DNA from: an uncultured Methanolobus sp.
GTDB taxonomy: Archaea; Halobacteriota; Methanosarcinia; Methanosarcinales; Methanosarcinaceae
Reading direction: 5' to 3'
Assembly: GCA_963675495.1 (NCBI GenBank)
Contig: OY776215.1
Span: 2,752,001-2,816,000 of the forward strand
Length of the DNA stretch: 64,000 bases
Under the pieces are notes generated by a model. It searched no databases, was not told the origin of the DNA, and saw only the letters and a program-made list of their open reading frames with translations. Made by a program: the position numbers and the translations under genes. Positions 20,486-30,545 of this stretch are shown piece after piece (the first letter of the stretch is position 1; each line of letters starts with the position of its first letter).

Positions 20486-21799
20486 TTATTTTTTAATTCC
20501 AGTGTAACTGGATGATCCAAATCCCAGATCAATGATCTTATTTCTGGAAATCATTATTGAAATGACGTTTTTAGCTCCGTTGATGCTCAATCCTGTCCTT
20601 TCAGCTAGATCTTCAGCATCAAATGAATCCTTTTGCTCGATAAGGGATGAAATTTCATTTTCAAGAGTTACGTAGGTGTCTAAATTGTGCCATACTTTAA
20701 GCTGGTCTGCATGTTCCACGTTTTTATTAAATAGTACTTCGCCTGTTTCAAGATCATAGAGATAGAGAATCAGTCGAGGGTGAATATAATTTTGTGACCA
20801 GACTTTAATGTCATTTTTCCACTCTGAATTCAAAAGACAAATACTTTTATGTTGACCTTTTGGAACTACGTCTGCTTCTCTTTGCACGAACTGCATCATA
20901 GTTCTTACATCCTCAAATGGATGCCAGCAAGTCTCAAACGTGAGGAGGGGTTTCAAAACAGTATCCATTATGCTTCCGGAAATGAATTTCTCGGATTTGT
21001 TTATTTTCCATTTTCTATCTCCGATGTAGTCCCCATTTAGTGATATTTCGGGCTGGCATGCAGAATATTTGTGTTCCAGTACGTTCATGTAATTATAAAG
21101 TCTCGAAAGTACTTCCGTATCGATGCTTTCCTCTGAAGTTCTCTCGATTTGACCTGAAACAAATCTTTCCGAACTCATTGAAGGTGCCAATATATTTTTT
21201 GAGAGTTTTGAAGATCCAGATGATTTTCCTATGGTATCTACCAGGGATGGTGCTGAAGTCTCATCATCAGTTTCAATTGGAATCTGTTTCTTGCCGGAAA
21301 TCAAACGTTCTGAGCTGTTTAATTCCATTTGTTTTAGTTTGAATTCTTTAAGAAGATTCTTGTCTACAATAATGCGCTGCTCAATATCTTTTTTGAAGTT
21401 GTCAAGAAGATCTTCCAACAGAAAAATGTCAATCGTTCCTGTTGAACTGACCAGTGAAGAGAAAATTTCTTTCAATTTGGCAGAGTCCTCCAACAAGTTG
21501 TCTTCTTTCCTGTAAAAATCCTCCAGTGTACCCTCTCTGCCAGAAAACCCATCAAGCTCTTTGTTTTTTATATCTGAAAGAAGCTGGGATACATTTGTCC
21601 TGATATTGCGAAGCTGAAAATTGATCTCTGTAGCTTTTTGTGCATAAGTTCGCTGAATAAGTTTTTCAACAGAGCTATAAACATCGTTCAGGTTCTTGAT
21701 TACAATTTGCCGATTATTCTGTTCCAGAGCTTCGGGGTCTTTTAACACTTCCATCTTAATCTTTTCCTGATTATTTAGACCATAGTCAACTTTGTTCAC
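20486..21799 (-). CDS. Hypothetical protein: helical N-terminus, Ser-rich linker, alpha/beta domain, C-terminal winged-helix-like domain
   Basis: 437-aa ORF. The C-terminus FDAEDLAERTGLSINGAKNVISIMISRNKI fits an HTH/wH pattern. Last gene of the minus-strand ESCRT-like run. Confidence 0.75.
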   Translation of the reverse strand: MNKVDYGLNNQEKIKMEVLKDPEALEQNNRQIVIKNLNDVYSSVEKLIQRTYAQKATEINFQLRNIRTNVSQLLSDIKNKELDGFSGREGTLEDFYRKEDNLLEDSAKLKEIFSSLVSSTGTIDIFLLEDLLDNFKKDIEQRIIVDKNLLKEFKLKQMELNSSERLISGKKQIPIETDDETSAPSLVDTIGKSSGSSKLSKNILAPSMSSERFVSGQIERTSEESIDTEVLSRLYNYMNVLEHKYSACQPEISLNGDYIGDRKWKINKSEKFISGSIMDTVLKPLLTFETCWHPFEDVRTMMQFVQREADVVPKGQHKSICLLNSEWKNDIKVWSQNYIHPRLILYLYDLETGEVLFNKNVEHADQLKVWHNLDTYVTLENEISSLIEQKDSFDAEDLAERTGLSINGAKNVISIMISRNKIIDLGFGSSSYTGIKK

Positions 21800-21865
21800 A
21801 TATAAATTTTTATAACTGTCAATTGGATGTTCTATATTTAATAATTGGGAGGTTAATATACATAT

Positions 21866-23131
21866 TCATACTACCTCGTGTGTTCCAAGGTCAATGGGCT
21901 CTTGCTGGCAAAGAATCTCATTCACCTCAAAGGAGAAATTGAGATTGCCAAGATCTATCTTTCCAGCACTAATCGGTTTTATTGCAAGGGATGTATATGC
22001 CGATGCATGTGGCTGTATTTCAGGTATGCAAGTGCCAGTATTATGACATTCTATAAAGGAAGAGAAGCAGCTATTGAAGCAAACATTGCTGACAATCTCA
22101 TCAGATATGTTCTCTACATAAATACTCAATGTGTTACCAACTTCACAGTATAGTGTTTCGGGGACATTGACCTTTACTTTTACATCAGGGATTCCTATGT
22201 GTTGCTCTCCAAAAGCCACCGGTCCTATCTTGCAATTGTTGCCACCCAAGGTAAATAGAATTTCAAAATATCCAATGTCCAATGTACCTGGAATTGTTGG
22301 CATGACCTGATATGTAACACTATAAGATGAACCAGGAGTCATATTTTTTGTATCTGAAAACGCCGTATCATATTTTAGTCCTTCTGGGAAAGAAGACATT
22401 ATATGCAGATTCGTCAGGTCAACATTTAATGTATTTTTCATTTTAACAGAGATTGTAGAACTATGCCCTAATCGAAGCTCTTCCAGAATCTCAATGTTCA
22501 ATCCAAAGTATGAGTGAACAATGTCAATATTTCCGAAAAATATTGGAGATTTTTGGTGTTTGTTATTGTTAATCTCAAGGTAAAGGTCACAATAGCCTGT
22601 GGATACGTTTCCTGCTAGTAGAGGTATAAAAGAGAAAGACGACGGTACTGAAGACATTGGTTCAAGGTCACCAAGATTCAAAATAGGTTTATCACATCGA
22701 ATAGTTCCCGGGAATACTGCTCTTATCCATATATTCTCTATCCTTTTTTCAGTGGGGTTATTTACCCTGAAGAAAAGCATATTATTAAATCCCAGCTCAG
22801 CAGGTTCTGTAAATTTATATTCCAGGTTTACAGAATCTACAACCTGTAATTCTTTAACTCTTCTTCTTTCAATGCCGACCTTCTTTTCGTATGTCCAGAA
22901 AATGTAGATTATGGTATAAAGAAGAAAAATGTATATCGGTGCACTGGCAACATATACCAGGTCAAGTTTATTGTTAATAGATAGTATGAGACTAACAATA
23001 AGGTATGTGGAAAGCACGATCCATAAGAACGCATATGCCTGGAAAAAAAGTCCAGTCCTGCCCCCTGCTTTGTTCTGAAGCGCATGGGAGAGTGATTTAA
23101 ATATATCCTCCAGAGGTCCAAACTTCATCAA
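21866..23131 (-). CDS. Membrane protein with two N-terminal TMs and three tandem Ig-like beta-sandwich repeats
   Basis: Two hydrophobic helices, then three ~110-aa repeats (xVxN…NI/L…F…P…G…IG…F.I) ending in xPIxxG. Confidence 0.75.
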   Translation of the reverse strand: MMKFGPLEDIFKSLSHALQNKAGGRTGLFFQAYAFLWIVLSTYLIVSLILSINNKLDLVYVASAPIYIFLLYTIIYIFWTYEKKVGIERRRVKELQVVDSVNLEYKFTEPAELGFNNMLFFRVNNPTEKRIENIWIRAVFPGTIRCDKPILNLGDLEPMSSVPSSFSFIPLLAGNVSTGYCDLYLEINNNKHQKSPIFFGNIDIVHSYFGLNIEILEELRLGHSSTISVKMKNTLNVDLTNLHIMSSFPEGLKYDTAFSDTKNMTPGSSYSVTYQVMPTIPGTLDIGYFEILFTLGGNNCKIGPVAFGEQHIGIPDVKVKVNVPETLYCEVGNTLSIYVENISDEIVSNVCFNSCFSSFIECHNTGTCIPEIQPHASAYTSLAIKPISAGKIDLGNLNFSFEVNEILCQQEPIDLGTHEVV

Positions 23132-23193
23132 AATCGCCTATCTATGAGTGAATAGTTAGTTTATGGAAGTTTAATTATAAATATATTATTGAA

Positions 23194-24936
23194 TTAATTG
23201 TCTTGTATGGTCTTTGTGCCACATTCACTGCAAAAGTTTGCACCTTGAACTATTTTTGAACCGCATGAAGGACAATAATTAGCCATAAACTCTGATTTTT
23301 GTATCACACTATCCTCCACAACAACATCATCCGTACAATTTCCATTAAGGCCACATGAGTTTAACAGGTTGCTGCGCTGGATTATGGAATCCTTTATGGT
23401 TACATTTACAACCTGCTTAACATTGCTTTTTCCATTCGAATTAGATTTCATCTCCCTGCAAAGTTCGCGACCGAATTCTGCAAGCATGCCTACAAGTGAC
23501 TCTGCGGTTCGTGTTGCACCAAAAAGTTCGATACTCCCAGTCTCTTCAGAAATTGTGATCTTCAGGATAATATCATGATCATTAACCTTTGTCTTGCCAT
23601 AATACCAGGTTTCATAATGATTCCCATCTTTGTTTCTCAAAGTCCTAACATGCCTCACATCATGACGCTGAACCATCTCGCGACATATGTTCATAAGGGT
23701 TGCAGTGTCAAAGTCTGATCTCATTTGGTATACTTTACTATCCCTGAAAGGTAGCGCAGACAAAAGTTCTTTAAGAATTCCTATATTGATATCAGAACCT
23801 GTTTTCATGATCGGGCATGTCACTGCAATTCTTTTTGGTTTCATCTCTGTGTTCAGTAGTTTCCCTTTCGCATCCTTGTAGAATATTCTGCATTTTATCT
23901 CAGAGGACTTCGAACAGATGAGAGGATCAAAATAAATCATAACTGATTTTGAATTGTTGCCTTCTATGCTTCCCAGTAGTAATCTGTCATTTTTTACTGA
24001 GTACATTGGTTCAAATCTGTCTATCCTGAAAAGGTGTTCATCAAAATCAAAATCCAATGCCACATCATTGACCACAAGTGTAGAGATATTGTTGACAGCC
24101 ATTTTTAAGCGGACAAAACCCTGGTAGAACTCGGTTTCCCTGAATACCTGCAGTTGAGTTGTAAATTCTGGAGCATCGCTATTCGCTGCAGGTATATTCT
24201 TTGATACTTCACAAATTCCTATATTAAGAGGTTCCTTATTGTAATAATCTCCATTGATAAGGTATGAAATATAAATTTTACCGAGATCTATATTGTCTGC
24301 GAGCCTTGGATACAGAAAAATAGCAGTATAGCCGGAAGAACCTGCATTTACAACGTCAATACTTACAACGTTTTCTTCACAGCGAACGAGGCGTGAGCAC
24401 TCCGCCCTTATTGAGATGTTGGTTATTGGTATGTCTGAAGGGTTTATTATGGTTATCTTTACTGGGTTTTCTGTTTCTGCTTTCAAAGGTTGTTGTATGT
24501 CTACAACAACATTGACTGCTTCACTTATCCGTTTTTCATGATTGAGTTTATTGGCCCTTTTGATTTCATTTTCAGCATTAGTTTCTTTTATGGTTTTTCG
24601 GATTCTGGAACCTGATCTAAGTGCAACAAGAGGGCAGACAAAAATTGCGATTAAAGGAGCGGGTTCGAATGAAGAGAACACCAAAGCACCGAATATTGCT
24701 ATTATGGCTCCTGCAAAAACTGCATGGGAGAGAATGTTATCTTCATTTTTTCTATTCGTAGAATTTCCGTTAATGGCTTTTGGAATAACATATGCAGTGG
24801 TAGCTGCAAGTACAACCCCTATCATTCCGCCTGCTATAACATGTGGGAATCCTCCTCCGAGGCCAAAGAAGAGGCCTATGTAAATACCTATACGCAGGTT
24901 GTCACGGGGGTCTAAATATGACCATTTAAAAGTCAT
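23194..24936 (-). CDS. Multi-TM protein with Ig-like domains, an adaptin-appendage-like region and a C-terminal zinc ribbon
   Basis: About four N-terminal TMs, beta-sandwich repeats, an alpha/beta platform-like segment, TIKDSIIQRSN and CPSCG…FCSECG. Confidence 0.75.
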   Translation of the reverse strand: MTFKWSYLDPRDNLRIGIYIGLFFGLGGGFPHVIAGGMIGVVLAATTAYVIPKAINGNSTNRKNEDNILSHAVFAGAIIAIFGALVFSSFEPAPLIAIFVCPLVALRSGSRIRKTIKETNAENEIKRANKLNHEKRISEAVNVVVDIQQPLKAETENPVKITIINPSDIPITNISIRAECSRLVRCEENVVSIDVVNAGSSGYTAIFLYPRLADNIDLGKIYISYLINGDYYNKEPLNIGICEVSKNIPAANSDAPEFTTQLQVFRETEFYQGFVRLKMAVNNISTLVVNDVALDFDFDEHLFRIDRFEPMYSVKNDRLLLGSIEGNNSKSVMIYFDPLICSKSSEIKCRIFYKDAKGKLLNTEMKPKRIAVTCPIMKTGSDINIGILKELLSALPFRDSKVYQMRSDFDTATLMNICREMVQRHDVRHVRTLRNKDGNHYETWYYGKTKVNDHDIILKITISEETGSIELFGATRTAESLVGMLAEFGRELCREMKSNSNGKSNVKQVVNVTIKDSIIQRSNLLNSCGLNGNCTDDVVVEDSVIQKSEFMANYCPSCGSKIVQGANFCSECGTKTIQDN

Positions 24937-24940
24937 AGAA

Positions 24941-26104
24941 TCACTTTTTCAGCAGTTCGGAAAAAACATCTTCTTCACCGGTCTTCTGGATTGAAGTTCT
25001 GGCTTCTATATACCAGCTGACGATGGAAGGCTTTCTTTTCTGTAATACGGTTTCGAAGTCCCGTAGTTTTATCTTTCTTGGTTCGCCGCCTCTTAAAGCC
25101 TCTCCAAGGGGGATGTCTGCAGCTTCCTTACATATGGCTGCCAGATCTGCACCGGAATAAGAATTTGTGATCGTAGCCAGGTACTTTATATCGAGATCAT
25201 CATCAATGGGCCGCTTTTTCAAATGTATATTTAGAATCGCTATCCTTGCATCCATATCTGGTTCAGGAACAAAGACAAGTTTGCTGAAACGCCCCGGGCG
25301 TCTCAGGGCAGGATCGATGGCCCATGGTTCATTTGTGGCTGCAAGCACCAGAAGATCATCGGAATCAGTATCCACGCCATCCATTTGTGCTAACAGTTCG
25401 TTTACAACTCTCTTTGCATAGTCTTCACTTTCGCTGCGTCTTCCGGCAATGGAATCAATTTCATCAAAAAAGATAATAGACCTGTTTCCCTGACGGGCAA
25501 TGTCAAAGACCTGTTTGACATTCTTTTCCGAAGCACCCACCCATTTACTTACAATACTGCTGGTCTTGACGCTGATGAACTCCGCCCCGCATTCTTTTGC
25601 AGCCGCTTTTGCCATCATGGTCTTGCCACAACCCGGGGGACCATAGAGTAAAATTCCCTCTCCGGCCTTTTGACCGTACATATTGTAGAGTTCCTTATGT
25701 GTGAAAGGGTAGATTATAGCTTTCCGTATTTCCTCTTTTACCTGTTCAAGCCCGCCGATGTCTGGAAAACCAATATCAGGCATTTCTTTGAGAAACACAT
25801 CATCTTTTGAAAGAGAAGACTCATCGTTGCTTCCGGAATTCTTCCTGGTCTGGTTATTCCCGTCAGAAGACAAAACAGCGGAACCTTTTTTTAGTGCCTG
25901 GGCTCTGGCAAACAGATGTTCTGCAAGGTCGCGCTGGGTATTGCGGTCAATAGAATCGCCAGGTATGGTGGAAGCATCATTATAGAGCTTGGCAGCTTTG
26001 AGGTATAATTCACGTGCCCTTTCAGATTCTCCTCTGTCTTCCAGGTCTTTTGCAGCTTTTGCATATCCTCGGGCCTGGGCAGCAAATGTTATGGCTGAGT
26101 TCAA
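24941..26104 (-). CDS. Vps4/CdvC-like AAA+ ATPase with an N-terminal MIT-like domain
   Basis: Three-helix N-terminus (AKAAKDLEDRGESERARELYLKAAKLY) and a single AAA module: GPPGCGKT, pore loop SKWVGASEK, FFDEID, ATNEPWAIDPALRRPGRF. Directly downstream of the Snf7-like gene. Confidence 0.82.
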   Translation of the reverse strand: MNSAITFAAQARGYAKAAKDLEDRGESERARELYLKAAKLYNDASTIPGDSIDRNTQRDLAEHLFARAQALKKGSAVLSSDGNNQTRKNSGSNDESSLSKDDVFLKEMPDIGFPDIGGLEQVKEEIRKAIIYPFTHKELYNMYGQKAGEGILLYGPPGCGKTMMAKAAAKECGAEFISVKTSSIVSKWVGASEKNVKQVFDIARQGNRSIIFFDEIDSIAGRRSESEDYAKRVVNELLAQMDGVDTDSDDLLVLAATNEPWAIDPALRRPGRFSKLVFVPEPDMDARIAILNIHLKKRPIDDDLDIKYLATITNSYSGADLAAICKEAADIPLGEALRGGEPRKIKLRDFETVLQKRKPSIVSWYIEARTSIQKTGEEDVFSELLKK

Positions 26105-26155
26105 ATACGCACCCCTGATACGAACTTAATACAGTTCAGAAAATAAGATACAGGA

Positions 26156-26725
26156 TTATTCAGTATCTGCCATCTCTGATTCTATCTTCCTGGAAAGTTC
26201 ATCCTTTTCAGGTTCTTCACTTGATAGTTCTGCAAGTAGCTCCGATCTGAGTGAATCCTGCATTTCAGAGAGTTCATTCCCACCACTCATTGCTGCATCC
26301 ATGGAGGATGTCATCATATTTGTTGCCGTGTTCACCTTTTCCATAGAGGTTCTTATGTTTGTTACAGCACCTTCGAGTTTATTGGTATCAAAGCCAAGCT
26401 GTTTCTGCCATTTTCCCAGATCTTCGCCAATTTCAACAACTTCCTTAAGACCGGTTTGCATCTCAATTACATCGGTCATGGATTGTGCCATCTCTACCAT
26501 ACTACTAATGGTGTTGACCTGTCCTTCAACAAGGGAATGTCTTCTCGATGCTACCCTGAACTCTCTGTCGTTTCCATTTGCAAGAGCTTCTTTTGCCTGT
26601 TCCCTGGATTTCTGTTGCTTTTTTATGAGTTCCTTTTCACGGCTTGTGAGTCTTTGCTCTGAAATGCTAAGTTTTGTTTTCAGCTCTTCGGGCGATACCT
26701 TCTTAAATGGATTCTTTAATGCCAT
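26156..26725 (-). CDS. ESCRT-III (Snf7/CdvB-like) helical protein
   Basis: 189 aa from ATG 26725. Amphipathic MALKNPFKK start, basic helical hairpin (…REQAKEALANGNDREFRVASRR…), acidic C-half and a terminal MIM1-like helix EKDELSRKIESEM. Confidence 0.75.
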   Translation of the reverse strand: MALKNPFKKVSPEELKTKLSISEQRLTSREKELIKKQQKSREQAKEALANGNDREFRVASRRHSLVEGQVNTISSMVEMAQSMTDVIEMQTGLKEVVEIGEDLGKWQKQLGFDTNKLEGAVTNIRTSMEKVNTATNMMTSSMDAAMSGGNELSEMQDSLRSELLAELSSEEPEKDELSRKIESEMADTE

Positions 26726-26880
26726 TACAATTCCTCTTCCATTCTTTTCTGCTTTGCATATCGTATACACAGTTTCATAGCTTCAGATTTATTGATAGCT
26801 ATTCCCATTTCTACTAATGTATCCAGATATAGTTTACTGTCTTCTGAGATTCTTGCACTCACCGGGTAAGAATTAGCCAT
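26725..26880 (-). CDS. Ribbon-helix-helix (CopG/Arc/MetJ) transcription regulator, 51 aa, absent from the ORF track
   Basis: Translated by hand: MANSYPVSARISEDSKLYLDTLVEMGIAINKSEAMKLCIRYAKQKRMEEEL*. Its stop overlaps the Snf7-like ATG (TAATG). Confidence 0.8.
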   Translation of the reverse strand: MANSYPVSARISEDSKLYLDTLVEMGIAINKSEAMKLCIRYAKQKRMEEEL

Positions 26881-27003
26881 TGTTATTCCAACTTTACGTT
26901 GATTTGTATGCTTATGTATACAATGGAAAACAATATATATAATACTTCCTCAATACCTAAATAGAAGTAAAAATCAAACATTGATAAAAAAGGTGTTAAG
27001 ATT
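26881..27003. promoter_or_regulatory. Divergent promoter region of the ESCRT-like locus
   Basis: 123-bp AT-rich gap with an ATATATATAAT TATA-like run at ~26933-26943 between head-to-head genes. Confidence 0.5.
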
Positions 27004-28296
27004 ATGGCATTCAAATGGAAAAGAGAATCAGATGATATTGCCAGGGTGGTTCCTAAAAAAGAGGTTGGGGGTTTTTTCAGTAAAGCAGTGATCCTCTCTC
27101 CGAATGAAAAGGCAGCCATGGTAAAGAATGGAGTTGTTGATAAAATAGTGGATAGCGGCAAATTGCATGTCGGCGGTCTTTTAAAACCAGGTAATGTTGG
27201 AAAAGATGTGGATGTTGCCCTGATGGATACGTCTCCCAAGGATCTGCAATGGACGCAATCCGAACTATGGACCAGGGATAATCAAAAAGTAGCCTGTAGT
27301 GGACTGCTTCGATTCAGGATACAGGAACCAAAACGTTTCTTCCAGATGCTCTACGCCTATACAACACCTGATAAAAAGGGAGTCAGGGCACTTTCCATAC
27401 AGGATGTATATTCTCGTCTTGAAAGTGAAGTGCTCACCCTTGTCCTTGAACCTGAGGTCAGGCAGGAAGACATAGAAAATCTCTATGGTAACAGGGACCT
27501 TCGCCTTAATATAGAGAATGAACTTGAAATGAGGGTCAGGTCCACATTATCTATGTGGGGGTTGGAAATGCTGAAATATACAGCCCAGTGGGAGCTTGGT
27601 TCTTATGGAAAGGTTATGCAGGCGACCAATGATTTCCAGACCAAGGAAGAACTTGCTGAGCTTGATACTCTTGCAACAGAAGGGTATTCTGAACGCAGGG
27701 GAAGGGAAGAAGTTGCAGAAATGCGCGCCGGTCATGCAGCAATTTCAACAGAAAAGGATTTTCAGCGTAATCAAAAACTGGGGGATGTTAAATCTGAGCT
27801 TGAGATCGAAAGGTTGCAACATGAAGCAGACATGCGGGAAGCAAGGGAAGCAATCGGCCTTAAAGAAGAATTAAAACTTGCAAAGGCACGGGGCATGCGA
27901 GTGGAGCTTGAAGTCGAACAGGACATGAAAGACCGTGATCATGGTCGTGATATGGAATACCTGAAACATATTACAGAAGCTGGCGGAACTGATGTTGCAA
28001 AGACTGTGAGTGAGGGTCGCGAATACGGACGTATGTCGCCGGAGCAACTGGAAGCCCTTGCAAAGGTCAAACAGAGTGAAGCTGTTGCAAAGGAAGATAA
28101 GGTTAATTTTATGATGGAAGTTGAGGACAGGGAACGCGCCGATTCATATCGAAGGCAGGAGCTTGATGCTTCTATGATGGGTGCAGCAAAGGGCAAGACT
28201 TCACCCACCGTGAGAAAATGTCCGGGCTGCGGTTCAACAATTCCTTTAGAATCAAGTTTTTGTAGTCAGTGTGGGAAGAAACTTACTGATATTTGA
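27004..28296 (+). CDS. SPFH (band 7/flotillin-like) domain protein with coiled coil and C-terminal zinc ribbon
   Basis: LSPNEKAAMVKNG…TRDNQKVACSGLLRFRI…WGLEM fits the SPFH pattern. Long E/R/A-rich coiled coil; CPGCG…FCSQCG. Confidence 0.82.
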   Translation: MAFKWKRESDDIARVVPKKEVGGFFSKAVILSPNEKAAMVKNGVVDKIVDSGKLHVGGLLKPGNVGKDVDVALMDTSPKDLQWTQSELWTRDNQKVACSGLLRFRIQEPKRFFQMLYAYTTPDKKGVRALSIQDVYSRLESEVLTLVLEPEVRQEDIENLYGNRDLRLNIENELEMRVRSTLSMWGLEMLKYTAQWELGSYGKVMQATNDFQTKEELAELDTLATEGYSERRGREEVAEMRAGHAAISTEKDFQRNQKLGDVKSELEIERLQHEADMREAREAIGLKEELKLAKARGMRVELEVEQDMKDRDHGRDMEYLKHITEAGGTDVAKTVSEGREYGRMSPEQLEALAKVKQSEAVAKEDKVNFMMEVEDRERADSYRRQELDASMMGAAKGKTSPTVRKCPGCGSTIPLESSFCSQCGKKLTDI

Positions 28297-28304
28297 TACG
28301 AATT

Positions 28305-28333
28305 GTATGAACTTAGTTCATACTTCCTTTTTT
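28305..28333 (+). terminator. Hairpin plus T-tract after the SPFH gene
   Basis: GTATGAAC/GTTCATAC stem followed by TTCCTTTTTT. Confidence 0.5.
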
Positions 28334-28401
28334 AAGCGAAGACTAAATATCACTATGGCTAAAACAGTAAAACGGTAATATGGAAAGATAAAGGTGAAAT
28401 A

Positions 28402-29919
28402 TTGGTACAAAAGTCTTCCAAATCTCTGATCGTAATGCTTCTTGCATGCAGCATCTTTTGTCTGACTTCCGGGTTCGCATTTGCGAATGACTATGAAATT
28501 ACGCTTTCTGAAGGTGAGGTAGTAGAGATTCAGGATGGTTACTACCTGACTGTAATGGATATTGATACATATGATGAAACGGTAAGATTTGTAGTATCAT
28601 ATTATGACACCATGGTATGGGACAATTATTACCCACGAGGAGAGTATTTTTCTTATCAGGACGATTATTTGGTTCTCCAATTCAAAATTGATGATGTTTA
28701 TTATGATTCTTTTTATGGTTACGATTACTTAGTTCTCTCAGATATCTACATCTATCCTGATTATACTGTTACTTACGATGAAAATGAACATGACTGGCAA
28801 CCTGAGTACTCAACGGACTATTCAGACCACTCCGATACTTCTGCGGAAGATGAGCTATATGATATGCTTGGAATCCTTGCCATAGTTATTGTGGCAGTTT
28901 TTCTGATGCGTAAAATATCAAAGAAAAGCAAAGATAAAAAAGCTCTCAAAAAAGATAAAAAGGAGGCTACCTTTTCTCCTTCATCTGGAAAAGAAAATAC
29001 TTCAAAAACAGCTGGCAATGTCGAAGCTGGAATTGTGAAAACAGCAGCTTCAAAACGTGATCCTGTACTAGTCAAATCAGCTATCCAGTACAAAGGCGCA
29101 AATATTCTTTACAAAATAAAAGTTGAAAACGCGTCTGAAGAGCCCATGGGCGATATAACCATAAGTCTCTTTGTTCCCGAGGTCTTCCATATCAAGGATA
29201 ATCAGAAGACTATGTCTATGCTGCAGTCTGGAGAAGGAAAAACTGTAACTTTCCTGATCAGGCCAACTGGTGAGTGTGGAAATTGTATATTAGCAGGAAA
29301 CATTCGTTATTACGATTACAGCCAGAAAAAGCATGTTCAGTTCGATCTTAGTAATAAAATGGTGGATATAGTCTGTCCTGTACTTAAGATAAAAGAAGTC
29401 GATGAGGCCGAGTGGAGGCTGAAAGTCAGTTCTATGATAATTGCAGAAGAGGATACTAAGGATGTTGAAATTCCGGCTGAGAATCTTTTTGATATGGCCA
29501 CACGCATACTGAAAGATATGAACATGTTTATGATCGCACCTGAGGTAACATCCACACAGCAACTGTTCACCGGTGTGGCAAGGTTCTATGCACATGGTGT
29601 GGCTGGCCTGAAGTATGCTGCATATGTTGAAGTGGTGGGTAAACGTAAATCGAGGCTGATTGTAAAAGCCTGGGCTGAAAAGGAAGAAGCACTTACAGGT
29701 TTCTATCATAAGATCCTTGAAGAGATCGAAAAGAGAACTGATATCAAACTCTTTGTTGATGATTCCGTAACCCAGTACAATATAAGCAACACCACTATAC
29801 AGGATAGTGTGATCCAGCGCTCGAATATTGGCAGCGGTAAAAGAAAGTGTCCTCAATGCGGAAGGGAAGTTGAAGGTAGCGAAAAATTCTGTATCAATTG
29901 TGGCCGGAAGCTTGACTGA
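28402..29919 (+). CDS. Single-pass membrane protein: S-layer-like ectodomain, cytoplasmic adaptin-appendage-like region and zinc ribbon
   Basis: Signal peptide, Tyr/Asp-rich ectodomain (ITLSEGEVVEIQDGYYLTVMDID), TM plus lysine cluster. The cytoplasmic part is homologous to 23194..24936 and ends in CPQCG…FCINCG. Confidence 0.78.
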   Translation: MVQKSSKSLIVMLLACSIFCLTSGFAFANDYEITLSEGEVVEIQDGYYLTVMDIDTYDETVRFVVSYYDTMVWDNYYPRGEYFSYQDDYLVLQFKIDDVYYDSFYGYDYLVLSDIYIYPDYTVTYDENEHDWQPEYSTDYSDHSDTSAEDELYDMLGILAIVIVAVFLMRKISKKSKDKKALKKDKKEATFSPSSGKENTSKTAGNVEAGIVKTAASKRDPVLVKSAIQYKGANILYKIKVENASEEPMGDITISLFVPEVFHIKDNQKTMSMLQSGEGKTVTFLIRPTGECGNCILAGNIRYYDYSQKKHVQFDLSNKMVDIVCPVLKIKEVDEAEWRLKVSSMIIAEEDTKDVEIPAENLFDMATRILKDMNMFMIAPEVTSTQQLFTGVARFYAHGVAGLKYAAYVEVVGKRKSRLIVKAWAEKEEALTGFYHKILEEIEKRTDIKLFVDDSVTQYNISNTTIQDSVIQRSNIGSGKRKCPQCGREVEGSEKFCINCGRKLD

Positions 29920-30104
29920 GGTAGTTAAAGGTAGTGTTTCCTGTTTATATATGGTGGGAATCCTGTATCTCTGTCATTCATTTTTATTTTTGTAATTTTA
30001 ACAGTCAACCATTAACTCTAAATAATATAATACGGAAATAACATTCCTTGCATGCTGATTTAAAGAAAGCATATAATTTTTCGAATCACAATAGGAGGTA
30101 TCGG

Positions 30105-30545
30105 ATGAGACTGGAATTTATGGAGAAAAAATCAAGATTTGATGAATTTGAACAGGAATATCGTCACTCAAAGGCATACCTTCGCAGAGCAAGACAGTTC
30201 CAGAAAGAAGGGCAGAATCACAGTGTTGTATTCAACGTGTCCTCACTTGCGCTTGAACGTTATCTAGTTGCTTTGTGCTACTTGTATGACACGGAACCCT
30301 TTAATCACAATTACGCCAGTCTGATGGATACTGTGGAAAAGATTGTTGAAGTTCCTGTAGAATTGAACAAAGAGATTAGGTCTCTGGATGAGATATTCGG
30401 TATTTGTTCTATTGACGATTATTATCATGGTGAACCTGAGCTATCCGATACTGATAGGATTCTGTCAATGTGCGATTCAGTTGAGGGATTGTTCGATCAG
30501 GAAAAGATATCCTCAATTAGAGATTCTTTAGAGGAATGTGAATGA
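30105..30545 (+). CDS. HEPN-like domain protein
   Basis: ATG 30105 after AGGAGG. The helical LALERYLVALC…PFNHNYASL segment resembles the HEPN ExxLKA…HxL pattern. Confidence 0.6.
   Translation: MRLEFMEKKSRFDEFEQEYRHSKAYLRRARQFQKEGQNHSVVFNVSSLALERYLVALCYLYDTEPFNHNYASLMDTVEKIVEVPVELNKEIRSLDEIFGICSIDDYYHGEPELSDTDRILSMCDSVEGLFDQEKISSIRDSLEECE

Follow-up and report, generated by a model that had tools for sequence, protein, structure and literature searches.

A Meth_adaptin-class locus with ESCRT-III-like and Vps4-like proteins in Methanolobus, a candidate membrane-remodelling system outside cell division

Introduction

What does a methanogen with three tubulin/FtsZ-family genes in its genome do with an ESCRT-III-like filament protein and a Vps4-like ATPase? 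The question is raised by a locus at positions 20486..29919 of a 64,000-nucleotide stretch of DNA from an uncultured Methanolobus sp.; this whole stretch was analysed here and is referred to as the window. The locus consists of eight open reading frames (ORFs) in two divergent operons, and all eight were located where a preliminary description, made from the sequence alone, had placed them. That description had read the locus as an ESCRT-III/Vps4-type system with a role other than division and had supposed that systems of this kind might already have been catalogued computationally.

The reading was supported, and none of the three grounds for refutation that the description had named tells against it. 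The supposition also proved right. In its main text, a comparative-genomic survey (Makarova et al. 2024, mBio, PMC10936438) describes a "Meth_adaptin" clade of Vps4 ATPases, whose gene neighbourhoods contain ESCRT-III, two adaptin-appendage-like proteins, SPFH and ProX. The kind of system has been predicted in print, and we are highly confident that the Methanolobus locus is a member of that class. As to what the locus encodes, we favour, with moderate confidence, a self-contained membrane-remodelling machine of this class that would work on the cell membrane from its cytoplasmic side and would be dispensable for division. The evidence comes from family profiles of the filament protein and the ATPase, from the distribution of the genes among related genomes, and from the architecture of their partners.

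Results

Filament protein

The gene at 26156..26725 (minus strand) encodes a protein of 189 amino acids (aa), counted from the ATG, which the preliminary description had taken for a Snf7-like ESCRT-III protein. The homology was borne out by a transitive profile search. A profile search with the Snf7-like protein in 1.84 billion representative sequences gave 79 proteins at E ≤ 0.001, and the window protein together with 44 full-length relatives from that search was assembled into a broad profile (A6). When A6 was compared with the PDB, yeast SNF7 was matched with an E-value of 5.8e-7, positions 3-162 of the profile falling on residues 4-172. Heimdallarchaeial ESCRT-IIIB (1e-6), a Vps20/32/60-like ESCRT-III (1.2e-6), CHMP1B (2.7e-5), CdvB (2.4e-4), CHMP3 (5.6e-4) and CHMP1A were matched as well, and these matches, like that to SNF7, were colinear. 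Pfam Snf7 (PF03357) was matched by 26 of 32 close relatives of the window protein at E ≤ 0.1, and by 11 of the 45 sequences of A6 at E ≤ 0.01. These transitive profiles establish the product of 26156..26725 as a homologue of ESCRT-III. Membership of the PspA/Vipp1 branch was considered and rejected, because no PspA or Vipp1 chain appeared among the best 60 of the 96 PDB matches of A6. No significant PDB match was obtained with the single sequence, nor with the narrow family profile A1, which returned only IST1 at E-values of 0.2-0.8.

The Snf7-like protein has a net charge of +6 in residues 1-60 and of -10 in residues 121-189, which fits the asymmetry typical of ESCRT-III proteins (basic N-terminus, acidic C-terminus). 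In the amphipathic C-terminal helix of the family, L159, E162, L163 and E166 are invariant. Its identity across the 38 loci described below is 53-95%, and no other protein of the locus is conserved as well. As a separate observation, which is a lead only, the feature-space neighbours of one Snf7-like homologue include clusters carrying Snf7; the nearest feature clusters of the same homologue also include bacterial proteins annotated "hypothetical protein" from Planctomycetota, Bacillota and Chloroflexota, with scores of 0.95-0.96.

ATPase

The next gene of the minus-strand operon (24941..26104, TTG start) encodes the Vps4-like MIT-AAA ATPase of 387 aa. It contains a single AAA cassette, matched by Pfam AAA (PF00004) at 5.4e-45 and by AAA_lid_3 at 2e-10. 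Among 27 sequences of the ATPase family, the motif GPPGCGKT, the pair D214-E215, the residues K187-W188-V189-G190 of the SKWVG pore loop and the segment R268-R269-P270-G271-R272 (RRPGR) are invariant. Judged by these residues, with Walker A and B, pore loop and arginine fingers in place, the AAA cassette looks canonical and catalytically intact. The window ATPase is 67% identical to its counterpart in Methanosalsum zhilinae, presumably the organism from which the example accessions of the 2024 survey were drawn.

The ~75 N-terminal residues of the ATPase matched the whole 66-position Pfam MIT model over residues 10-73 with an E-value of 0.013, and the MIT domain of calpain-7 was the top PDB match of the N-terminal profile, also at 0.013. 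The Pfam MIT model was matched by 22 of the 27 family members at E ≤ 0.1 (best 1.2e-5). All these MIT matches lay under the curated cut-offs, and the feature is one of the family and not of its single members. At that level, the ATPase carries a MIT-like N-terminal domain. The NCBIfam CdvC model spanned residues 2-367 with 240.5 bits. No CdvC-family match was found at E ≤ 1e-75 in 201 genomes of the phylum, a threshold that is stricter than the score of the window ATPase itself, so that this negative carries little weight.

In 11 of the 120 listed relatives of the ATPase (P0153, P0155, P0157, P0159, P0163, P0169, P0170, P0173, P0174, P0176 and P0179), a PF02457 domain is fused to the C-terminus. 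These proteins are ~560 aa long and ~56% identical, contain the motifs LDGAF and GTRHS, and include one from Ca. Methanoperedens. We take PF02457 to be the DisA_N family of diadenylate cyclases (DAC). The fusion suggests a possible link between the ESCRT-like system and c-di-AMP or osmotic signalling.

Conservation and loss of the locus

A locus scan with one genome per species gave 38 loci. By label, 12 of these were from Methanolobus, 3 each from Methanococcoides and Methanomethylovorans, 3 from Methanoperedens/Methanoperedenaceae, 8 from metagenome-assembled genomes (MAGs) of Methanosarcinaceae, 6 from MAGs of Methanosarcinales, and 1 each from MAGs of Halobacteriota, Methanobacteriota and Thermoplasmata. 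The main text of PMC10936438 labels the Meth_adaptin clade Methanobacteriales, and all 38 loci are in Methanosarcinales/Methanoperedenaceae or unclassified MAGs; the published label may be a slip.

The gene for a ribbon-helix-helix (RHH)-like protein and the SPFH gene were each present in 37 of the 38 loci. The ATPase gene was present in 33, in 30 of them directly after the Snf7-like gene. The gene for a 437-aa protein with a winged-helix (wH)-like end was found in 33 loci, directly after the ATPase gene in Methanococcoides and Methanomethylovorans, and the gene for a 505-aa type I membrane protein in 32, five of the six misses being contig ends. The core therefore consists of the RHH-like protein, ESCRT-III, the MIT-AAA ATPase, the 437-aa protein, SPFH and the 505-aa protein. 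The remaining two genes, for Ig-rich membrane proteins of 580 aa (searched at ≥43% identity) and 421 aa (≥38% identity), are accessory and not core, since each was found in only 12 of the 38 loci.

The core genes also appear and disappear together. Among 41 related genomes, the Snf7-like protein was present in 16, a full-length 505-aa gene in 15, the MIT head in 14, and all three in 14. Both genomes with a Snf7-like protein and no MIT head were cut at contig ends, and each of the 25 genomes without a Snf7-like protein also lacked the MIT head and the 505-aa gene. The preliminary description had expected its genes to co-occur in other genomes; this was confirmed for the core, in both the 38 loci and the 41 genomes, the two Ig proteins being accessory.

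Within the genus, no Snf7-like match was found in 11 of 24 sampled Methanolobus congeners. Four core-less Methanolobus genomes were inspected at the rpS6e site. Three of them (L059, L060 and L062) retain only the 421-aa gene, and in the fourth (L061, G016:C22:15800-30800) a deletion has left a scar, in which remnants of the 437-aa, 580-aa and 505-aa genes surround a gap. The system is dispensable, because several Methanolobus species have lost its core.

Partner proteins of the core

The SPFH/Band-7 protein (27004..28296, plus strand, 430 aa) matched Band_7 at 5.5e-7 with 30.2 bits, over the cut-off of 23.6, and Zn_Ribbon_1 at 2.2e-5. Its SPFH domain is followed by a charged helical region (approximately residues 200-400), the Zn ribbon is located at the C-terminal end, and no hydrophobic or predicted transmembrane (TM) segment was found in the protein. 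The neighbouring gene on the same strand (28402..29919) encodes the 505-aa type I membrane protein, in which a signal peptide is followed by an ecto-domain of ~120 aa, a TM segment (residues 151-169), a cytoplasmic Ig/appendage-like module, the sequence DSVIQRS and a Zn ribbon. In the family alignment (A5), the cytoplasmic part is far more conserved than the variable ecto part. Among 20 members of the family, Alpha_adaptinC2 was matched by 8 (best 0.0052), GAE_BBS1 by 4 and the Zn ribbon by all 20; the adaptin matches in this and the other locus families were all under the curated cut-offs. For the SPFH and 505-aa families, profile searches of the PDB gave only Zn-ribbon or weak matches.

The 437-aa protein (20486..21799, minus strand) is soluble, and its gene may truly start at an internal Met near 21754. 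In the family alignment (A4), a helical N-terminal domain is joined by a variable linker to a conserved middle domain, and a wH-like domain forms the C-terminus. The window protein itself had no Pfam match. Among 20 relatives, wH-type matches were obtained to HTH_24 (3), MarR (2) and EAP30/Vps36 (2, best 6.4e-4), and the family profile matched wHTH structures in the PDB only at E-values of 0.18-1.1. We therefore regard the wH domain as a tentative assignment based on weak matches. All named homologues are annotated "hypothetical protein". In feature space, the nearest cluster to one homologue was from Planctomycetota, with a score of 0.86 and nothing higher.

The RHH-like protein (26725..26880, minus strand, 51 aa) heads the ESCRT operon, and the TAA stop codon of its gene overlaps the ATG of the Snf7-like gene by 1 nt. 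NCBIfam AbmR (C-terminal part) was matched at 1.6e-6. Among 18 family members, Pfam RHH_1 was matched by 6 (best 0.0018) and RelB by 7, and the family profile had no significant match in the PDB. The RHH assignment is plausible but weak.

Divergent promoter region

Between the two operons lies an intergenic region of 123 bp (26881..27003), which contains a TATA-like element and, just downstream of it, a palindrome (approximately 26904..26945). When 13 loci were aligned, the invariant and near-invariant columns fell in one block of ~45 bp, TATTATATATA...TGTTTTCCATTGTATACATA(A/G)GCATACAA, the exception being the complement of the start codon at the left end. This block, made up of the TATA-like element and the palindrome after it, is kept from Methanolobus to Methanococcoides. 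The palindromic element is unique in the 2.87-Mb genome, both as a 27-mer with up to 4 mismatches and as a 20-mer with up to 2 mismatches. The palindrome is probably an operator, placed over the transcription start, for the RHH-like protein, which would make the 51-aa protein a probable autoregulator.

Accessory proteins and a recurrent motif

The larger accessory protein (23194..24936, minus strand, 580 aa) has three N-terminal hydrophobic segments and Ig-like domains, contains the DS..Q[RK]S motif twice and ends in a Zn ribbon (Zn_Ribbon_1, 3.5e-7); its gene begins 4 nt after that of the ATPase. Alpha_adaptinC2 was matched by 4 of 11 members of its family (best 0.0039), and a beta-propeller domain is present in one member. 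One of its Ig units is homologous to the three tandem Ig-like repeats of the smaller accessory protein (21866..23131, minus strand, 421 aa), which also has two TM segments. The 421-aa protein matched Transglut_C at 7.7e-8, over the cut-off, and TRAPPC13_C at 7.5e-6, just under it.

The motif DS[IVL][IVL]Q[RK][ST] occurs three times in 13,858 frames (≥60 aa) of the genome, compared with 0.25 expected, and all three occurrences are in the locus: two in the 580-aa protein (window positions 23300..23400) and one in the 505-aa protein (29790..29830). Typically it stands 10-15 residues ahead of a Zn ribbon. In other loci, a relaxed form was found in heterogeneous proteins (L050:1444-2256, L055:1952-4141, L049:13417-15450), among them a HEAT-repeat protein encoded between the Snf7 and ATPase genes and a TPR protein. 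It was also found in extra Zn-ribbon paralogues and in a protein with an FGE-like end, the latter recognised by eye. From this pattern, we read the motif as a putative docking tag.

Genomic setting

The run of genes in the preliminary description, with their strands, the head-to-head layout of the two operons and the flanking genes, agrees with the ORF positions and flank genes found here. The locus is flanked by NDK, aIF5B and rpS6e on one side and by HEPN, PNPOx, PdxT, PdxS and GyrA on the other. In the scan, rpS6e adjoined 18 of the 38 loci. The three distal minus-strand genes have a G+C content of 0.36-0.38, compared with 0.43-0.46 over the ATPase and SPFH genes. Named homologues of the locus proteins put the genome in Methanolobus. 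A chance cluster of ORFs was ruled out, as each gene has conserved homologues in syntenic loci elsewhere.

The HEPN-domain gene (30048..30545, plus strand; Pfam E-value 8.4e-5) adjoins the locus and is kept there only in loci of the Methanolobus type, in 11 of the 38; it is probably an unrelated gene of the toxin-antitoxin type. Weak NCBIfam matches to models with "seleno" in their names, namely TsoA (0.001), the zinc-ribbon (seleno)protein DG (0.0051) and an Asgard selenocysteine-system protein (0.0023), fell on the three proteins encoded at 20486..21799, 23194..24936 and 28402..29919. The matches may simply come from modules that these proteins share (wH, Zn ribbon), or they may hint at a related set of neighbouring genes elsewhere.

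Discussion

Weighing the ESCRT-III/Vps4 assignment

Several observations weigh against the reading of the locus as an ESCRT-III/Vps4-type machine. The Snf7-like protein alone matched Pfam Snf7 with an E-value of only 0.0041 and 17.2 bits, under the cut-off of 27.3, and the Snf7, MIT, wH and RHH matches of the window proteins all fall under their curated cut-offs, so that the case for homology is made by family profiles. For the AAA core, CDC48 (266.6 bits) and PAN (249.5 bits) gave higher scores than CdvC (240.5 bits), and p97/Cdc48 were the top PDB matches of the ATPase. For the pore-loop segment, p97 D2 (38.8 bits) and Vps4 (39.1 bits) are tied, and D2 of the archaeal VAT also reads SKWVGESEK; the KW pore loop, considered as a Vps4-specific marker, was therefore discarded. 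In loci of the Methanoperedens type, the ATPase gene is located away from the Snf7 gene. Finally, no ProX gene lies in or near the locus (2.77-2.78 Mb), the three OpuAC genes of the genome being at 1.68 and 1.84 Mb, 0.9-1.1 Mb away; in this the locus differs from the Meth_adaptin neighbourhoods of PMC10936438 as its main text describes them.

As for the filament protein, the Pfam Snf7 cut-off is too strict for archaeal members, since none of the well-known genomes used as controls reached it, including Sulfolobus acidocaldarius. The case of the ATPase is divided. The preliminary description had named a grouping with Cdc48/PAN fragments without a MIT domain as the result that would speak against it: a MIT-like head is present, although in the AAA core Cdc48-D2 and PAN score no lower than CdvC. 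The placement of the ATPase in the Vps4 family rests on the published tree, in which the Meth_adaptin clade was set (PMC10936438, main text), together with the MIT head and the gene context.

Proposed mechanism and role

A membrane-remodelling machine of the Meth_adaptin class could work as follows. A dimer of the RHH-like protein, bound to the palindrome at the expected transcription start, would repress the ESCRT operon, and perhaps both operons, until a signal arrives. The type I membrane protein, with the accessory Ig/Zn-ribbon proteins where these are present, would anchor the soluble SPFH protein and mark a patch of membrane. The SPFH protein and/or the wH protein, the latter in an ESCRT-II-like manner, would recruit and nucleate the ESCRT-III polymer at this patch. 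The polymer would constrict the patch in the outward direction, either sealing it or releasing it as a vesicle, and the MIT-AAA hexamer would bind the acidic C-terminal helix of ESCRT-III and recycle the subunits. By way of the locus-specific tag beside the Zn ribbons, variable proteins, adaptors or cargo, would be recruited. The homology of the proteins, the linkage of their genes and their sequence features are established; the order of assembly, the operator, the reader of the tag and the physiology are all inferred.

With regard to the main role, our tentative preference is for membrane repair or shedding, that is, a maintenance system responsive to envelope or osmotic stress and working by outward budding; we hold this as a possibility that falls somewhat short of an even chance. 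The DAC-fused ATPases found here and the ProX gene of the Meth_adaptin loci described in the main text of PMC10936438 together point towards osmotic physiology. A role other than division, as the preliminary description had proposed, fits the three tubulin/FtsZ-family genes and the loss of the locus in congeners. The available part of a 2021 preprint likewise judges it unlikely that the Cdv-like genes of euryarchaea serve in division.

The same set of proteins could instead serve routine, cargo-selective sorting of proteins into vesicles, with the Ig modules and the ecto-domain selecting cargo and ESCRT-III/Vps4 budding extracellular vesicles. Weak adaptin C2 and GAE matches do recur (8/20 and 4/20 in the 505-aa family, 4/11 in the 580-aa family for adaptin C2), and the tag shared with HEAT and TPR proteins and the beta-propeller of one 580-aa relative resemble adaptor or coat logic. 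Protein sorting or vesicle formation is also what the authors of PMC10936438 propose in its main text. However, none of the adaptin matches reaches its curated cut-off, the putative operator is of the repressor type and suggests conditional expression, and many congeners do without the locus. We rank routine cargo sorting a close second, at well under an even chance. A bolder version would make the locus a peptide-signal sorting machine, in which the tag plugs interchangeable Ig/appendage-like, HEAT and TPR adaptors or cargo into a core of SPFH, ESCRT-III and MIT-AAA, switched by the RHH protein and, in some lineages, wired to c-di-AMP through the DAC fusion. We consider this version doubtful. 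If true, it would place in a methanogen a logic of signal, adaptor and scission like that of eukaryotic coat and ESCRT sorting.

The ambiguous AAA core invites a different explanation, membrane-protein quality control. An SPFH cage working with an AAA unfoldase has a precedent in HflK/C-FtsH, and here a Cdc48-D2-like unfoldase would extract or unfold membrane proteins bearing the tag and the Zn ribbon, with the Snf7-like protein as an adaptor or regulator only. The AAA core is indeed no further from Cdc48-D2, PAN and FtsH than from CdvC, SPFH is present in 37 of the 38 loci, and the membrane proteins in the locus bear the tag. This explanation is nevertheless improbable: a MIT-like head together with a usually adjacent ESCRT-III homologue is a hallmark of Vps4-type recycling, the Pfam scan found no protease domain in the locus, and ESCRT-III is the most conserved of the locus proteins. 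Still less probable, and in our view very remote, is that the locus is an accessory, Cdv-like back-up for division or a module of anti-virus defence or virus egress. ESCRT-III and Vps4 do divide the cells of TACK archaea and of some Thermoplasmata (PMC10936438, main text; 2025 review, available part), a HEPN gene adjoins the locus, and the distribution is patchy, as for defence islands. Against division stand the three tubulin/FtsZ-family genes and the lack of any CdvA family in the Pfam scan of the locus proteins, which agrees with the preliminary description; the scan covered the locus only, and CdvA was not searched genome-wide. Against defence, PADLOC returned only generic AAA similarity (IetA, 147 bits; TRIP13), HEPN occurs in only 11 of the 38 loci, all of the Methanolobus type, and the system sits at one conserved chromosomal site by rpS6e in 18 of the 38 loci and not in a mobile island.

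What is known of ESCRT machinery outside TACK and Asgard archaea comes from genome comparisons only. The preliminary description knew of no experimental characterisation in methanogens, and our literature search found no experimental paper either; the available part of the 2025 review, which cites the 2024 survey, reports no experiments on such systems. The present locus is a compact and complete example from a genus that can be cultivated and in which natural variants have lost the system. It makes testable the role of a non-division archaeal ESCRT, the recruitment of ESCRT-III without ESCRT-I/II (for which the SPFH and wH proteins are candidates), and the antiquity of the link from SPFH to ESCRT-III that is seen in Bacillus PspA-YdjI. 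The operator, the tag and the DAC fusions offer concrete experimental handles.

Comparison with known systems

The closest counterparts are the Meth_adaptin loci of PMC10936438. According to its main text, their appendage-like proteins consist of IG plus TBP domains, one with a Zn ribbon and an additional N-terminal part and the other with a GOLD ecto-domain attached through a TM linker, and their SPFH protein has a coiled coil and a Zn ribbon. In the Methanolobus locus, too, a Vps4-like MIT-AAA ATPase and ESCRT-III are encoded together with an SPFH protein that has a Zn ribbon and a charged helical region, and the architectures of its 505-aa and 580-aa proteins fit the appendage-like pair, with Alpha_adaptinC2 matches that are weak (8/20 and 4/11). 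Apart from the missing ProX, it differs in having an additional membrane protein with three Ig repeats. The RHH gene with its operator, the 437-aa wH protein, the tag and the DAC-fused ATPases were not found in the main text of the survey, whose figures or supplements may hold them; the split into core and accessory genes, the loss of the core in Methanolobus species and the absence of ProX were likewise not found in that main text.

With the CdvB/CdvC system of Sulfolobus and other TACK archaea, the locus shares an ESCRT-III homologue and a MIT-AAA ATPase in one operon. In contrast to that system, the Methanolobus ESCRT-III lacks a fused wH domain, the genome contains FtsZ-family genes and the locus is dispensable in congeners. 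The ATPase itself scored 240.5 bits against an equivalog cut-off of 650 bits for CdvC.

The likeness to eukaryotic and Asgard ESCRT lies in the filament family, whose best PDB matches were yeast Snf7 and Heimdallarchaeial ESCRT-IIIB. In addition, the part of ESCRT-II could be taken by a separate protein with a wH end, of which 2 of 20 relatives touch EAP30/Vps36. However, the 437-aa protein has an unrelated build of helical and middle domains, the locus encodes a single ESCRT-III paralogue, no ubiquitin link or ESCRT-I was seen here, and the AAA core is not clearly of the Vps4 type.

A further parallel is found in Bacillus subtilis. [quoted passage not shown] YdjI depends on YdjG and YdjH, membrane proteins from the same operon that are needed to place both YdjI and PspA at the membrane, and YdjI itself is required for the recruitment of PspA there. 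In this PspA-YdjGHI (SamGHI) envelope-stress module, as in Methanolobus, a protein of the ESCRT-III superfamily is encoded with an anchor-less SPFH protein that bears a Zn motif. The Methanolobus filament protein differs in being Snf7-type, and it is accompanied by a dedicated MIT-AAA ATPase and by unrelated Ig/appendage-like membrane partners. With these differences, and as far as the available text describes it, PspA-YdjGHI is the best-studied functional analogue of the Methanolobus locus.

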